Source: an uncultured delta proteobacterium
Lineage (GTDB): Bacteria; Desulfobacterota; Syntrophobacteria; Syntrophobacterales; Syntrophobacteraceae
DNA: 64,000 bases
Reading direction: 5' to 3'
NCBI GenBank assembly: GCA_963802715.1
Contig: CAWDJT010000043.1
Location: forward strand, 1-64,000
The position numbers were made by a program. Of this stretch, positions 24,001 through 33,000 are shown in pieces (the stretch's first letter is position 1; every line of letters begins with the position of its first letter).

Positions 24001-27000
24001 TACTGCGCGGGGCTGGTGGCCTTCAACTCTATTTTCCAGGTGCTCTTCTTTTCCGTCTACGCCTACATTTTCATTACGGTCCTGCCCAAATGGCTCGGTA
24101 TGACGGGAACGGTGGTCGATATCTCCATTGGGCAGATCGCCGAAAGTGTCTTCATCTATCTGGGCATTCCCTTTATTGCCGGCATGCTCTCCAGGCTCAT
24201 CGGCCTCAAGACCAAAGGCCGCGACTGGTATGAAAAGAAGTTCATCCCCAGAATCAGCCCGATCACCCTCATCGCCTTGCTCTTCACCATCCTGGTGATG
24301 TTTTCGCTCAAAGGCGAATACATCGTGCAGCTCCCCTTCGACGTCATCCGCATAGCGATCCCGCTGTGCATCTACTTCGTGCTCATGTTCCTGGTCTCCT
24401 TCTACATGTCCAAGAAAGTGGGGGCCACTTACGGACAGGCAACGACGCTCAGCTTCACGGCGGCCTCCAACAATTTCGAGCTGGCCATTGCGGTGGCCGT
24501 TGCCGTGTTCGGGGTGAACTCCGGTCAGGCTTTTGCCGCGGTCATCGGTCCCCTGGTGGAGGTGCCCGTGCTCATCAGCCTGGTGAACGTGGCTTTGAGG
24601 TTCAAACAGAAATACTTCATGCCTTCCGTCTGTGCCGTGTGCGGGGTCCGAATCGACCCAGTTCCTCCTGTTTCGATGCCGTAAGGGGGATGACGAGCTG
24701 CTGGTGTGTCCCACCTGCACCCATGCATCATTGCACGCCGAGAGCGGCGAGGCAAAACACTGAAGAGTGGCAAACCGGTTTGCCTGAGTCAACAAGAAGG
24801 AAGTGGAACCATGTTTGAGAGAGTTGTGCTGGCTACGGATCTTTCCGCCGACTGGGATCAGATCATCGCCTGCGCCGCAGAATTCAAGGCCCTTGGATGC
24901 ACCCAGACGATACTCACCCATGTCATTGTGACCAAGGGGCTGGTGGGTGCTGACACCGTTGCCCAGGCCGAGGCCCAGCCGCAATTGGAGGCACAGCGGA
25001 AGCAGCTGGAAGCGCACGGTTTCGACGTGATCGTGGAAACCCCGGTTGGGCTTCCCGCCTTTTCCCTGAATGAAGTCGCCCAGCGCCACTGCGCCTCGCT
25101 CATCGTGGTGGGCTCCCATGGCAAGTCGGCCTGGCGGGAAGCAGTGCTGGGGTCGGTTTCCAATGCCCTGCTGCACCATGCTCGCTTCCCGATCCTGCTG
25201 ATCAATGTCAAAAGGCTTCGAGAAGAGGAAACAGGAGCCCGCTGCCAGTTGCATACCAGGGAGCTATTGCGCCATGTGCTTTTCCCCACCGATTTTTCCA
25301 CCGTGGCCAGCCCGGCAGTTCCATTACTGGAGTATCTTATTCCCAAGGGTTTGTCCGAGGTCACCTTGCTCCACGCCCTTGATGTCCTTGATGCCTATCC
25401 TCCGGCTGTCTTGGCCCCGGCCGAAGCTGCCGCCAAGGGCTTTACCAAAGCCCTGGTCGAGCGCCTCCAGGCAGCCGGCATTCCCCGGGTCCACAGCCAC
25501 ATCTCCAAGGGACATCCCATCCCGATGATCCTTGATTTCCTGAAAACGAGTGACTTTTCTCTGGTGGTCATGGGAACTCAGGGAAGAAGCCTGCTCACGG
25601 AAATTCTACTGGGGAGCGTAGCCTACAACATCGCCCGGCTCGCTCCGTGCCCGGTGCTTCTGGTCCCCAAGGAAGCTGTTAGCGGTTGAGCAAATGAGTG
25701 CTAATGAAAGTTCAATAAAGGAGAACGCCAATGCCTAAAGATTTCGTTGCCGTCCAAATTCTTGATCTTCCCGGTAGCGGAGGCGGCTGCGCTTGCAGTT
25801 CGACCCCGCGCGGGCCGGAATTCATCGCGGCGCTCATGCAGAAATGCGACGAGCTGAAAGCGGCCTTGGAATCCAGCTTTCCCGGCCAGACCAGCACCGA
25901 GTACATCGACTTGCAGCAAGTTCCTGCCGCGAAAGAAACCGAGGCCGGGAAACTCCTGGTCAGCAAGCAGTACCCGGCCCCGCTGGTGGTGATCGATGGC
26001 GCACCCAGGTTTGCCGGCAGCATCCAGGTGAACCGGATCGTCAAGGAAGTGGAAAAGATCCTCAACGCTTGACGCACAGGAGGAGGTGAGATGGAAGAGT
26101 ATCTGGAAACATCCTACGACAAGTTCGTGTTCAGGGTGAAGGTCGGCTACTTCTACAGCAAAGATGACTTCTGGGCGAGCGTCACCGACAACATCGCCAC
26201 TGTGGGCGTAAGCGATTTCCTGCAGAAAGCCAGAGGCGATGTCGCGTTCCTCGAGACCGCCGAGGTGGGAACCGAAGTCAAGCAAGGCCAGGAACTGGGC
26301 AAGATCGAAACCATCAAGGCGACCTTCGCGATCCTCTCGCCGGTATCGGGCAAGGTGGTGGAAGTCAATTCGGAACTGGAGTCCAGCGCCTACCTCATCA
26401 ATGAAGACCCCTACGGAGCGGGCTGGATCTACAAAATCGAGCTGACGGATTTTGCCGGCGATAAGGCTAACCTCCTTCAGGCTGGAGGATATCTGGAGCT
26501 TATGGAACAGAAGATCGCCGAGGAGATGAAGAAGAAATGAGCCAAGAAGCCAGGAAGGTGGTCGTGCTTCCGTGCAGCGGGATCGGCAAGGTCTACGGCG
26601 CGATGGCCCGCGAGACGACCTATGAACTGATGGATCGGGTGAGGCCCGGAGTGGTCGTTACCACCTGCCTGCCGCTCCTGGTGATCGACGATCCGGAGGC
26701 AAAGCGGCTGGTTACCGAGAATCCTGTCATCACCATAGACGGCTGCCCCAAGAGCTGCGCGCATAAAGAGCGTCGAGGCGCATGGCATCAAGGTCGCCAA
26801 AACCTACCAGGCGATCAACTTCTACAAGGCCCACAAGGAACTCAAGCCGGATGGGATCGCCGAACTGGATGAAAATGGCCGGAAACTTGCCGCGGTGGCA
26901 GCCGATGAACTGGCGGAAGTGGTGGATGAACTGGCTGCCGGGGAGGTGAAATGATGAGCCTCGAAGTTCTCAAAGTCGGCATTGTTTCTTGCAGCGGCGA

Positions 27001-30000: not shown

Positions 30001-33000
30001 GCCTCGGCTTCAGGAGTGTGGCCTCCGGTCCTCTGGTTCGAAGCTCTTACAAGGCCCCGTGCTTCTTTGGAGAGCTCTCATGACGGTATGGAGGCTGCTC
30101 GATACCGGAACCCTGCCGGCATCGCTCAACATGGCCATCGATGAGGCACTTGCTGCAGCTGCATGTGCCGGGGCAGTCACCACCGACGCTGCGCTTCTAC
30201 CAGTGGAGCCCTCCCGCCGTTTCCCTCGGCTATTTTCAGAAGCGCCACGCCATCGATCTCAATGCTTGCCGAGAGCTCGGTCTTGACGTCGTTCGCAGGG
30301 TAACGGGCGGCCGGGCGGTATTGCACCAAGACGATCTCACCTACAGCGTTGTCGCCGATTCCAGACAAGGTCTCCCGTCTTCCCTTGATGCCGCCTATCG
30401 CTTGCTCTGCAATGGGCTTCTGGAGGGGTTTCGCCTGCTTGGGTTCGAAGCCGAGCTGGGAAGAGACCAGGCAAGATCGCCTCAGGGCGACATCTGCTTC
30501 GTGCGCGCGGCCATTGGCGACATTGTTTACCAGGGAAGGAAGTTCGTGGGGAGCGCCCAGACATGGCATGGCGCTTCCTTGCTTCAGCACGGTTCCATCA
30601 TGCTGGAGCCACAGACAAGAACTTGGCGGCCATCATCAAGACGGACTCGCCTGAGTCGATCAGCGAGAAGCTCACCTCCCGGATGATCTCACTTCGCGAG
30701 ATTCTCCGACGAAGGATCGATTCCGGCGAGCTGAAACAGGCCTTGAAGGCGGGAATGGCTGAAGCGCTTCAAGTGGAATTCCAGGCCGGAGAGTTGACTC
30801 CACGGGAATGGGCGCTCGCTGAAGAGATAGCAGCCGGCAAGATGATCGAAGAGGGAAGTCATGACTATGGCGAAAAGTTGTCAGCGGTCCTGGCATGAAG
30901 TGGTCTGGCAGGGAGGAGCTATCCTGGTGTTGGCCTCCGTCATCGCGCTTTCCGTCAACCAGTTACGCCCCGGGAGGCTTCCCCTGGTGGCCGACTGGTC
31001 GCCGAAGGCCCAGTTGACCACCGACTCCGGGATCAATCTGGAGATTCCCCTGGAAGATGCGGAAGCCCTGTTTTTTGCCCGCATGGCGCTGTTTCTCGAT
31101 GCGCGGCCGCCCGATCAATACGCGGCGGGACACATCCAGGGGGCGTTGAATCTCCCCTGGGATGCCTTCGAAGCAACCTTCCCACAGGTCATGGCCGGCG
31201 TGCCGCACGACACCACCATCGTCACCTATTGTGATGGCGAGACCTGCGGCCTGAGTAAGGATCTGGCCTTCGCCCTGCTGCAGGAAGGCTATTTCAACGT
31301 TCGCGTGCTGGTCAACGGCTGGACCCTGTGGCAGCAGAACCATCTGCCGGTGGAAACCAGTGGTGACGGCCCGTAGATGGGGCAACCGGGGTTGCGCTCG
31401 ATAACCAGGAACCAAAGGTCATTGTGATGCCCATGCAAGATGAGACGAGAGCAACAATCAAGATCAGGGTGCTTCACACCGAGGGGTGTGCCAACACGGC
31501 GCCTACCATCGCGCTGATTGAGGCGGTCGCGGCGGAACTCGCCACCGACATCGAGCTTTCCAACATGCCCATCAACACCCCGGAGCAGGCCCACGCACAC
31601 AGCTTTTACGGCAGCCCGACGGTCCAGGTCAACGGCCGGGATATCGAGGTCGCGGTGCGAGGCAGCCAGGCGTTCGGGCTCACCTGAAGAATGTATGGGG
31701 CATCGGGGGTGCCCCCCAGGGATATGGTGAAAGACGCCCTTCTCGAAGCGGCGAGCACACCAACCAGGTAAGCGCTACAGCCACAGCGCTGGACAAACCA
31801 AGAATACCAAGGGGAACGAAAGTGGATCACTCGAGCAAAAACTTAGTTTGCTGGTCTCATGATCACTCGTCACCTGGACACGATCACGACCACCAGCACT
31901 GAAGGAACCCCGGCAACCACCTGGTATCTCGTGCGCGACTCGATTTTCTGGTGCTGGGATGCACCCTGACATTTAGAGTCATCTTTAGACCCGACCCGGG
32001 AAAAGCCGTGGCGGCGACATCCCGATGCGGTTCATAGCTCAACGATATGTTGGGGCCTATGGGAAGAGGGTCTTGTGAGGGATGTCCGGAGCCTGGCTGA
32101 TCGTCCTTTTTCTGGGCTGGATACTTGTGAAACCTTAAGGAGGGATCAAATTGAGCAAGTTCGTTGGTTGGATCTGTTTGTTGGCGGTTTTGAGTCTTTG
32201 CGCGCGAGTTTACCCGCTGTACGCCCTCGATGGACCGGTTGCCGTTCCCGAAGTGCCGGTAAAGGGCATGGTCACCATGTTGGATATCGGGGCCGACCGG
32301 TGCATCCCCTGCAAGATGATGGCTCCCATCATGAAGGAGTTGGAAGAGGAATACCGGGGCAAGGCCGCAATCATCTTCATTGATGTGTGGAAGCGCCCGG
32401 AGCAGGCGCCGAAGTTTCGCATCCGCGCCATCCCCACTCAGATTTTCTATGACAAAGACGGCAAGGAAGTGCAGCGCCATGAGGGATTCATGGACAAAAA
32501 GGCAATCGTTGAGGTCCTGGAAAGACTTGGCGTGAAGAAGTAGCTGCGGAGACGAGATGTTCGACCAGATTTTTCTGACGGTAAATACCTGGATGATGGC
32601 AGGGACGGCCCTTGCCGCTCTGGGATGCTTTCTTTGGGGAATGATCAGCGTGGTGTTCAGCCCCTGCCACCTGGCTTCCATCCCGCTGATCGTGAGCTAT
32701 GTGGCCGGGCAGGACAAGGCGCTCCAGGCCAGGCACGCGGTTCACTATGCCGTGGCCTTCACCGTGGGGTTGTTTATCACCATCGCCCTGGTGGGGATCA
32801 TCTGCGCCTTGCTGGGGCGCATGCTGGGCGAAGTGGGGCCGTACTGGACCATCCTGGTGGGGGGCGTGCTCATCTGGGTGGCCGCGGACATGCTGGGTTT
32901 GGCACGATGCTCCATGTCCGGGAGTCTGCTGGCCCGGATCAAAATCAAGGGGTTGATCGGGGCCTTCATCTTGGGGCTGGCTTACGGGGTTCTTTCAGGA

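Follow-up and report, generated by a model that had tools for sequence, protein, structure and literature searches.

The window analyzed here is a 64,000-nucleotide stretch (positions 1–64,000 of contig CAWDJT010000043.1) from the 88 per cent complete genome of an uncultured delta proteobacterium of the Syntrophobacteraceae (GCA_963802715.1). It carries an arsenic-resistance island in which all genes from arsR through ccdA form one co-directional run on the plus strand. The run is headed by an ArsR-family repressor (19901–20245; PF01022 and NF033788 above cut-off) with an LCVCE motif of the arsenite type. There follow an ArsE-like thioredoxin with an N-terminal ‘X’ domain of ~70 amino acids (20316–20834; TIGR00412 above cut-off), an ArsP permease (20850–21956; PF03773, E = 2e-77), a small ArsE/MTH895-like thioredoxin with a CxxC motif (22086–22325; TIGR00412 above cut-off), a protein that recurs in related islands and has a C-terminal putative Fe-S domain (22333–22920; PF04060, cluster FeS37), the thioredoxin-type arsenate reductase ArsC, whose C-terminus is out of frame (23028–23456; PF01451, with TIGR02691 as best match, below cut-off), and the arsenite efflux pump Acr3 (23581–24684; TIGR00832, 465 bits against a cut-off of 283).

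Beside these arsenic-resistance genes lies the module under study (25731–30898), which the first-pass annotation placed directly after acr3; the two are in fact separated by a gene for a tandem universal stress protein (24811–25689; PF00582). Profile matches recovered the complete gene set described earlier (GcvH-like carrier, two DGC proteins, OsmC, dihydrolipoamide dehydrogenase [Lpd], lipoyl synthase [LipA], and lipoate ligase), preceded by a small CxC protein (25731–26072; weak DUF1462 match). Downstream, the same run continues with thiol genes assigned by profile matches (30861–33273): a rhodanese, a DF-family (seleno)protein, a thioredoxin, and a DsbD/CcdA membrane domain. The reported frame error in the ligase exists, but single-base indels also break three other module genes: there is one break in DGC1 (near 26764), three in Lpd (near 28005–28190), two in LipA (near 29680 and 29795), and two in the ligase (near 30145 and 30630). 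Lpd has apparently also lost its stop, which fuses it in frame to LipA, whereas the two are separate genes in 24/24 related loci. Because this load (approximately nine indels in 5.2 kb) exceeds what was seen elsewhere in the genome (6/29 genes broken), the window copy may be decaying. The genome holds further copies of Lpd and LipA, two E2 genes, and TrxB outside the module, which thus duplicates housekeeping parts.

To describe the module beyond this copy, we collected 57 genome loci via DGC2, many of which are kin. In 56 of them DGC1 adjoins DGC2, and 51 have a GcvH-like gene no more than 2 kb away. In a second set of 80 metagenome loci, GcvH is present in 42 of the 46 loci of at least 3.5 kb, so that the claimed recurrence of a GcvH-DGC-DGC core is upheld in both sets. 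The module has two versions. Version 1, the only one recognized in the first-pass annotation, has OsmC, with or without Lpd, LipA, and ligase; 20 of the 57 named genome loci show the order GcvH-DGC1-DGC2-OsmC-(Lpd-LipA-ligase), and nine of these 20 OsmC-type loci also have the small CxC protein. Version 2 (three-DGC or Acidobacteriota-type; 29/57 genome loci) replaces Lpd and OsmC with a ferredoxin, a third DGC, and an HdrA-N-like protein that aligns to HdrA residues 6–94 (E = 0.0011). In a same-strand count over 137 loci, Lpd occurs in 30 and the HdrA-N-like protein in 43, and never both together. One locus (L183) has an OsmC-type module plus divergent HdrA-N/ferredoxin genes that fall outside this count, and because the two versions track lineage, their mutual exclusivity may reflect history. 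OsmC, found in 64/137 loci, is therefore not core: none of the 35 well-flanked HdrA-N loci has it, although they keep the DGC pair. Lpd is missing from 14/34 well-flanked OsmC-type loci. Among the 77 well-flanked loci, Lpd or two Fe-S proteins are present in 56, and in five the DGC1-DGC2 pair has no adjacent GcvH. Our search of the literature found no paper on a lipoyl-DGC cassette.

The window carrier (26091–26540; PF01597, 114 bits, E = 4e-33) is a GCV_H-domain protein with its lipoyl lysine, Lys76, in the motif ETIKA (codon 26316–26318). As had been reported, this lysine is conserved, being kept in 54/54 carriers from the genome loci (window included) and 63/63 from the metagenome set. The protein falls below the cut-off of the equivalog TIGR00527 (107.4 versus 115.85 bits) and barely passes the broader NF002270 (119.1 versus 117). 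No match to GcvP or GcvT was found in the 88 per cent complete source genome, in which control profiles did match; this absence, noted before, does not generalize, as gcvP is present in 38 of the 50 module genomes. No gcvP/T cluster is recurrent among the neighbors in the 57 genome loci. In a phylogenetic tree, 24 module carriers, from Desulfobacterota-like bacteria, Acidobacteriota, Planctomycetota, and one Asgard archaeon, form one branch (support 97/91) apart from seven gcvP/T-linked and 11 other GcvH proteins. Judged from these sequences, the separate branch is a better argument for a dedicated carrier than the absence of gcvP/T. The window carrier belongs to this module-specific clade. 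It resembles the H protein of glycine cleavage in its GCV_H domain and lipoyl lysine and departs from it in the TIGR00527 score, the grouping apart from gcvP/T-linked H proteins, and the lack of P and T matches in the source genome.

The constant partners of the carrier are DGC1 (26537–26954) and DGC2 (26951–27361), the latter an alpha/beta protein. In the window, they score 45.5 and 64.4 bits against PF08859 (cut-off of 27), and each has four conserved cysteines. All four are present in 57/57 DGC2 and 26/26 fused DGC proteins; in DGC1, three are present in 54/54 and the first in 50/54. The PF08859 DGC domain is presumed by annotators to bind zinc. As a check for kinship with the Fe-S domains of MvhD or HdrB, DGC was compared by HHalign with a five-sequence MvhD profile, which gave a probability of 0.9 per cent. 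The DGC-GcvH fusion described earlier does occur, in one version of the module, and the best 120 relatives listed for the fusion protein all carry both PF08859 and PF01597. For DGC1 and DGC2 of one locus (L001), structure prediction gave a dimer score of 0.85, compared with 0.01 for the best of three controls; the mark applied to such scores is reached by 116/157 solved pairs and 2/215 mismatched pairs. The runs agree in at least 97 per cent of contacts, with pLDDT of at least 90. In the model, the conserved cysteines lie at the interface, and Cys44 of one subunit touches the Cys74 region of the other, which would create two interfacial cysteine sites. The prediction thus pairs DGC1 with DGC2 in a heterodimer; as the two are paralogs, the predicted dimer cannot tell a heterodimer from homodimers.

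DGC proteins as a whole had been assigned to a lipoyl-dependent system. That assignment fits the paired subfamily and fails for DGC overall: of 200 genomes drawn from the host's phylum, 45 have DGC, and only two of these have a GcvH match within 3 kb of it at E = 1e-8 (three if a weak match is counted). Single DGC genes also occur in ars operons without GcvH.

The remaining enzymes are less uniform. The OsmC-like protein (27374–27796; PF02566, 33.3 bits, cut-off of 27.5) has the first (peroxidatic) cysteine, as do all listed module copies. At the position of the second (resolving) cysteine of 2onf, the window protein has serine, as do module-type copies (23/23 and 41/41); a cysteine three residues past that serine is present in 21/64 of them and also in the window copy. 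Without the resolving cysteine, a standard peroxidase output is doubtful. For Lpd (27808–29204), both pieces of the broken gene match TIGR01350 best and the N-terminal redox motif CLNWGC (CxxxxC) is present; an intact relative (L012) scores 488 bits against a cut-off of 408.8. LipA (29203–30083) was assigned by a profile match, and an intact relative (L002) reaches 353 bits against the TIGR00510 cut-off of 310. The ligase (30080–30898; PF21948; ~260 amino acids) is a catalytic domain without the accessory domain; its only match is to the catalytic subunit from T. acidophilum, and it reaches no family cut-off. It may be LipM-like; LipM has no LplB according to the available part of PMC10332631. 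A ligase is present in 42/57 genome loci and LipA in 16/57.

The unnamed X domain, which is N-terminal on the window ArsE-like thioredoxin, recurs across the loci. It is joined to DGC2 in 38 of them and to a thioredoxin of the ArsE-like kind in 16, and the two fusions do not occur together. The thioredoxin X domain and the DGC2 extension match in HHalign (probability 86 per cent, E = 5e-6) and give no match in pairwise BLASTP; X is missing from 16/47 well-flanked loci. An ArsE-like thioredoxin lies within 10 kb in 28/29 three-DGC loci, and in one locus (L022) it is fused to ArsM.

The first-pass annotation described the module as often lying in ars clusters, which is accurate for the OsmC type and weaker for the Acidobacteriota version. 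Arsenic genes occur in 40/57 genome loci, including 18/20 of the OsmC type and 16/29 of the Acidobacteriota type. When both flanks are at least 8 kb, 13/13 OsmC-type loci lie in ars clusters; in well-flanked loci of the Acidobacteriota version, arsenic genes are present in 9/20 and missing from 11/20. They are also missing from 7/23 metagenome loci of at least 8 kb. Loci without arsenic genes often adjoin chromate, CDF, and RND exporters. The acr3 gene is found in 18/20 OsmC-type loci and 47/50 module genomes. For comparison, in the 45 sampled genomes, read by eye, 0/104 GcvH matches lie within 10 kb of acr3, and a single DGC lies within 10 kb of an acr3 match in 19/45. The available text of 10.1101/2022.10.17.512643 describes, in P. 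mercurii, an arsenic-induced operon with a single DGC. Such operons resemble the window in that DGC has arsR, arsP, and an ArsE-like thioredoxin as neighbors; as far as that text goes, they differ from the module in that their single DGC belongs to another branch and is given no function, and in that GcvH is lacking.

The redox and arsenic roles of the module are inferred from these associations. Tentatively, we prefer to see it as a dithiol electron relay from lipoyl to DGC that supplies ArsE-like thioredoxins and, through them, enzymes that transform arsenic. The lipoyl arm of the carrier, lipoylated by LipA and the ligase in this scheme, would receive its electrons from NADH by way of Lpd. 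The DGC dimer, whose interfacial cysteine sites may hold a metal or Fe-S cofactor, would then hand electrons on to ArsE-like thioredoxins, the flow running from lipoyl through DGC to thioredoxin. The X domain might dock DGC2 onto the thioredoxin, and the end users could be ArsC, ArsM, or ArsEF. In version 2, ferredoxin, the HdrA-N-like protein, and the third DGC may stand in for Lpd as input; the one-cysteine OsmC could be a lipoyl-contacting thiol adaptor or a side peroxidase. We count in favor of the relay that a reductant source accompanies both versions (Lpd in 30 and HdrA-N-like protein in 43 of the 137 loci). Also in its favor are the conserved core, the invariant lipoyl lysine and DGC cysteines, the separate carrier branch, the DGC-GcvH fusions, the predicted dimer, the X domain shared by DGC2 and ArsE-like thioredoxins, and the arsenic context, including the arsenic-induced single-DGC operon of P. 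mercurii. Against it, dihydrolipoamide binds trivalent organoarsenicals tightly, according to the accessible portion of PMC7072575, and such binding could poison the relay. Moreover, TrxB is already in the genome, so a second thioredoxin-reducing route is not obviously needed. The well-flanked loci that lack arsenic genes, Lpd, or X, and the DGC1-DGC2 pairs with no GcvH beside them, also count against it.

The same logic operates in Mycobacterium tuberculosis, where electrons pass from NADH through Lpd, the lipoyl arm of DlaT, and the adaptor AhpD to the terminal enzyme AhpC; the module instead has a free H-type protein as carrier, and a four-cysteine DGC dimer is proposed as adaptor in the place of AhpD. 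In Trichomonas vaginalis, L-protein and H-protein reportedly work with an OsmC peroxide reductase (Nyvltova, in 2016, is said to have described this). With that system and the proposed GcvH-like/OsmC pair Hden_1299/Hden_1301 of Hyphomicrobium (10.64898/2026.10.01.755906, available part), the module shares Lpd, a free GcvH-type carrier, and OsmC outside glycine cleavage. It differs, so far as those accounts extend, in an OsmC that lacks the second cysteine and is dispensable in version 2, in the DGC pair as constant partner, in its arsenic-island setting, and in having its own LipA and ligase. The sHdr-LbpA system, as presented in the accessible text of PMC6067878, likewise comprises a GcvH-like lipoyl protein dedicated to it, along with a ligase of its own, and version 2 adds a protein like the HdrA N-terminus and a ferredoxin; unlike that system, the module has no full HdrA, HdrB, or HdrC among its recurrent neighbors, has LipA rather than LipS1/S2, and lies in an arsenic context. 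The GcvH-L/LplA2/SirTM operon of S. aureus, in the part of PMC12440151 that is available, is also a stress operon around an extra GcvH-like carrier and its own ligase; the module, by contrast, lacks a sirtuin or macrodomain, has DGC together with Lpd or Fe-S proteins, and occurs in an anaerobe and an arsenic setting.

It is rather unlikely, yet worth weighing, that the reduced lipoyl arm is a decoy for As(III) or methylarsenite and that the DGC dimer removes the arsenic, including that on E2 lipoyl domains which it has poisoned, and hands it to Acr3 or ArsP, with Lpd or the Fe-S branch only keeping the arm reduced. As(III) has lipoate among its primary targets (K ~5e9 per M for dihydrolipoamide and melarsen oxide, in the available text of PMC7072575), clustered interfacial cysteines of the predicted dimer could ligate As(III), and the prevalence of acr3 with the module, the two E2 genes that the genome has outside the module, and the single DGC genes near acr3, which would fit direct arsenic binding by the family, all point the same way. 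A decoy needs little electron flux, however, which sits poorly with the Lpd or two Fe-S proteins found in most well-flanked loci, and four invariant cysteines would serve a metal cofactor no less well than As(III), which is three-coordinate. A general defense against peroxide and thiol stress, in which Lpd, lipoyl-GcvH, and OsmC would work as they do in the hydrogenosomes of Trichomonas, has the L-, H-protein, and OsmC precedent, the proposed Hyphomicrobium pair, the frequency of OsmC, and the many three-DGC loci without arsenic genes on its side; the module would then sit in metal(loid) islands because such stresses oxidize thiols. The serine at the second cysteine position and the loss of OsmC from HdrA-N loci that keep the DGC pair make this explanation improbable.

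We give little credence to a lipoyl reservoir, in which the carrier would store lipoate and re-lipoylate E2 damaged under arsenic stress while the DGC pair shields or gates the arm. S. aureus GcvH-L does likewise under oxidative stress (PMC12440151, accessible portion), ligases and, less often, LipA accompany the module, and ligases of the LipM kind, consisting of the catalytic domain only, act on GcvH (PMC10332631, in part); still, the recurrent neighbors include no cluster for a sirtuin, a macrodomain, or a separate amidotransferase, and Lpd, ferredoxin, HdrA-N, and the invariant cysteines would be left unexplained. It also seems very improbable that the DGC dimer is an Fe-S scaffold or sulfur-transfer unit and the lipoyl protein a sulfur carrier like LbpA in sHdr, for the benefit of radical-SAM enzymes or other metalloenzymes in the island. 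The HdrA-N-like and ferredoxin partners fit such a role, as do the rhodanese and TIGR04311 radical-SAM maturase beside DGC pairs, including four loci without adjacent GcvH, but the maturase is near in only 7/57 loci, no HdrB, HdrC, or TusA cluster recurs, and the arsenic association would be incidental.

Beyond the relay, a bolder and somewhat doubtful proposal is that the DGC1-DGC2 heterodimer is an Fe-S or metal-thiolate enzyme of a new class, in which the dithiol of a protein-bound lipoyl group is coupled directly to arsenic chemistry. It would either reduce pentavalent methylarsenicals or free lipoyl groups of As(III), and it would be fed by NADH via Lpd or by ferredoxin via the mini-HdrA branch. 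If true, such direct coupling of DGC to arsenic would give PF08859 its first function, and the module would be the first system of arsenic resistance to rest on lipoic acid, the cofactor that arsenic itself targets.

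The genes at 25731–30898 in the window very probably constitute a dedicated lipoyl–DGC unit. They are part of a series of same-strand genes that begins with arsR (19901) and ends with a CcdA/DsbD gene (33273). Ahead of the cassette come arsR, arsP with an ArsE-like thioredoxin on either side, an Fe-S protein gene, arsC, acr3 and Usp. We recovered the previously reported gene content of the cassette, namely a GcvH-like carrier (Lys76 within ETIKA), DGC1, DGC2, the OsmC-like protein, Lpd, LipA and the catalytic domain of a ligase, with a gene for a small CxC protein in front. A DF-family (seleno)protein gene follows on the plus strand (31424–31771; reading through the TGA at 31685–31687 as Sec gives a 115-aa frame). 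Divergent from arsR, on the minus strand, are A/V-type ATPase genes (17453–19486), among which the product of 18069–19130 matches ATPase subunit C below the cut-off. Because the genome has further Lpd, LipA and TrxB genes and two E2 genes elsewhere, the cassette amounts to an additional set. The genome also has 14 MvhD/FlpD matches, five with an in-frame TGA, pointing to a putative selenocysteine-using, Hdr-rich anaerobe. The nearest named relatives by DGC2 are Syntrophobacteraceae and Syntrophales bins (85–87 per cent identity). A search of a plasmid collection returned zero matches, and a promoter and terminator scan found no more sites than in shuffled sequences.

Several cassette genes are broken, and their family assignments are based on intact relatives. 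The first-pass annotation had noted a frame error in the ligase; indels are indeed present there, but they also affect DGC1, Lpd and LipA, with about nine single-base indels over 5.2 kb across the four genes when compared to intact relatives. A natural Lpd-LipA fusion was rejected, as the two genes are fused in 0/24 related loci, and contigs of four relatives each place one gap at the junction. The base at 24647 is missing from relatives' contigs in all four sequencing runs, and the Cys-rich tail of acr3 is therefore a probable frame error. (The sequencing runs shared at most 14 per cent of words; the four runs used, one of them RNA, gave relatives' contigs, which speak neither to expression nor to the true sequence of this strain.) Of 29 genes probed outside the cassette, 6 are split (a rough figure, as some shadow frames are counted and compensated shifts escape), and one E2 gene is in three pieces. 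The indels in the cassette are likely due to assembly error, but they may reflect gene decay, as the local rate exceeds the genome background.

To place the cassette among its homologs, we used 57 loci from named genomes, retrieved with DGC2. DGC1 is adjacent in 56 of these, GcvH lies within 2 kb in 51 and a ligase is present in 42. The arrangement GcvH-DGC1-DGC2-OsmC occurs in 20/57 loci, with Lpd in 14 of the 20 and LipA plus ligase in 15. The first-pass annotation described this version only; a second one, with three DGC proteins, was found in 29/57 loci, every one labelled Acidobacteriota. It comprises arsR, an ArsE-like thioredoxin, an HdrA-N-like protein (matching HdrA residues 6–94, E 0.0011), a ferredoxin, a DGC-GcvH fusion, DGC1, DGC2 and usually a ligase. 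The 80 metagenome loci contain the same two versions (GcvH in 42 of the 46 loci of at least 3.5 kb), along with a variant of the second version that lacks the fusion (HdrA-N, ferredoxin, DGC1, DGC2, third DGC and GcvH), often divergent from arsR-acr3 (L141, L143, L156, L159, L161, L165, L173, L174 and L176). Across all 137 loci, HdrA-N (43 loci) never shares a same-strand neighbourhood with OsmC (64) or Lpd (30); the exception is locus L183, where HdrA-N and ferredoxin are divergent and thus outside the same-strand filter. Because loci were picked by DGC2 and many are kin, these counts are not of independent events.

Some neighbourhoods depart from both versions. In L055, from the Asgard archaeon Ca. 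Borrarchaeum, the order is arsP-DGC-DGC-GcvH, with a second DGC pair 9 kb off. A TIGR04311-type radical SAM/SPASM maturase is encoded beside DGC pairs in L017 (7652–8995), L036, L039, L041, L048 and L056. Some of these pairs have no GcvH next to them; GcvH-OsmC is located about 7 kb away on the opposite strand in L039 and L048.

The carriers retain the lipoyl lysine in 54/54 and 63/63 cases. The claim of a lipoyl redox unit had been argued partly from missing gcvP and gcvT. Neither was found in the 88 per cent complete window genome, in which controls were detected, but gcvP is present in 38 of 50 module genomes (covering 50 of the 57 loci). Since the argument from absence does not generalize, the carrier phylogeny matters: a 42-row tree places the 24 module carriers, drawn from an Asgard archaeon and several bacterial phyla, on a single branch (support 97/91), separate from gcvP/T-linked H proteins. 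The cassette ligase lacks the accessory domain and may be a LipM-type octanoyltransferase.

The proposed tie to arsenic resistance is strong for the OsmC-type version, that of the window, and only moderate for the three-DGC version. Counting acr3, arsP, arsC, arsF, arsG and arsM, an arsenic gene is present in 18/20 OsmC-type, 16/29 three-DGC and 6/8 other genome loci, and in 13/13, 9/20 and 5/5, respectively, when both flanks are at least 8 kb. Three-DGC loci are also found near chromate, CDF and RND exporters. Among metagenome loci, 28/46 have an arsenic gene (16/23 of those of at least 8 kb). As a control, acr3 was found within 10 kb of 0/104 GcvH matches from 45 sampled genomes, a figure counted by eye and depressed by fragmented contigs. 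Taken as a whole, the cassette probably serves arsenic handling.

Linking DGC proteins to GcvH holds for the paired subfamily but not for DGC at large. In a random sample of 200 genomes from the phylum, a DGC occurs in 45, and only three combine a tandem pair of the DGC1/DGC2 type with a GcvH of any kind in the vicinity. G171 is the only clean module in this sample, because the GcvH of G007 falls outside the module clade and the DGC pair of G127 has lost cysteines. Most single DGCs branch separately from paired ones, and they are often near acr3 (19/45 genomes, counted by eye). At L079 (6982–8727), the neighbours of a divergent DGC pair with some cysteines lost are CobW-type GTPases and a GcvH that is likewise divergent.

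Four cysteines are near-invariant across every DGC subtype. DGC2 is confidently modelled as an alpha/beta domain of four strands (pLDDT 94). For locus L001, modelling predicts that DGC1 binds DGC2, with a complex score of 0.85 vs 0.01 for the best control, pLDDT of at least 90 and runs sharing at least 97 per cent of contacts; the score mark is reached by 116/157 solved and 2/215 mismatched pairs, rates that are only rough for our own alignments. In the model, the pseudo-symmetric interface includes Cys13, Cys44 and Cys74 from both chains, with Cys44 of DGC1 in contact with Cys74 of DGC2. These contacts suggest two cysteine sites built across the subunits of the modelled dimer. As paralogs, DGC1 and DGC2 could equally form homodimers instead of a heterodimer. 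The DGC-GcvH fusion model reached a pTM of 0.48 from 28 sequences.

No match to the DGC profile below E 0.6 was found in a sequence search of the PDB, nor to the DGC2 model at E 0.001 with Foldseek; ESM Atlas gave no usable match beyond PF08859. VIA matched the DGC2 model best (Z 8.4–8.7, rmsd 3.0–3.8 over 100–120 residues) to transketolase/E1-beta C-terminal domains and unrelated alpha/beta proteins, with Z 6.9 for ArsC 2l17. MvhD and HdrB are not among the best 50 VIA matches listed, which excludes nothing. An MvhD-like [2Fe-2S] assignment was tentatively rejected: the cysteine spacing is similar by eye, but the HHalign probability is just 0.9 per cent.

We tentatively favour a dithiol relay, each catalytic step of which we infer. 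The lipoyl arm would be reduced by Lpd, or by ferredoxin, HdrA-N and the third DGC; the DGC dimer would hand electrons on to ArsE-like thioredoxins, which would serve ArsC, ArsM or ArsEF. The main pointer to such an electron destination may be an unnamed domain of about 70 aa, the X domain, carried by DGC2 in 38 loci, by the ArsE-like thioredoxin in 16 and by both in none (free-standing in 5; no Pfam match). It is located at 20316–20570 in the window, on the thioredoxin directly behind arsR, and at 10409–10696 in L025; its homology was detected by profile match only, pairwise BLASTP being negative. L022 has, immediately before its HdrA-N-like gene, a fusion of ArsM with an ArsE-like thioredoxin (3472–4749); by similarity, L024, L027, L051 and L057 have the fusion too, the family scan covering L022 only. 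An ArsM (arsenite methyltransferase) gene at 52530–53387 (plus strand; above the NF008823 cut-off), which lies on this contig 22 kb downstream of the cassette, encodes a possible client of the relay.

That the cassette instead captures and releases arsenic is rather doubtful. Peroxide defence via OsmC is unlikely; module-type OsmC-like proteins keep the first cysteine and have Ser at the second in 64/64 copies. An AhpD-like (CMD) neighbour was considered as an OsmC substitute and set aside, occurring in just 6/29 three-DGC loci with a single Cys. It is quite improbable that the cassette acts as a lipoyl reservoir, and we consider a role in sulfur or cluster handling equally remote.

Trivalent arsenic classically attacks lipoic acid, which makes an extra lipoyl protein in arsenic islands surprising. 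Lipoyl relays outside central metabolism are already known, so we class the cassette as a variant of these. The nearest systems include the mycobacterial Lpd-DlaT-AhpD-AhpC relay and, reportedly, the L/H/OsmC system of Trichomonas. Further near systems are the proposed GcvH-like/OsmC pair of Hyphomicrobium (10.64898/2026.10.01.755906), S. aureus GcvH-L (PMC12440151) and sHdr-LbpA (PMC6067878). No description of the cassette was found in the searchable literature (mostly without subscription papers and preprint supplements); one preprint describes an arsenic-induced operon that contains a single DGC gene (10.1101/2022.10.17.512643). The cassette is real, widespread and apparently unpublished, and its DGC core and probable arsenic use are absent from the literature searched. 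The hosts of cassette-bearing arsenic islands are anaerobic bacteria and archaea. For the uncharacterised DGC family, the analysis adds a predicted quaternary structure, candidate partners and a short list of proteins (110–150 aa) suited to in vitro reconstitution. The ferredoxin/HdrA-N version would allow Lpd-independent reduction of a lipoyl protein.
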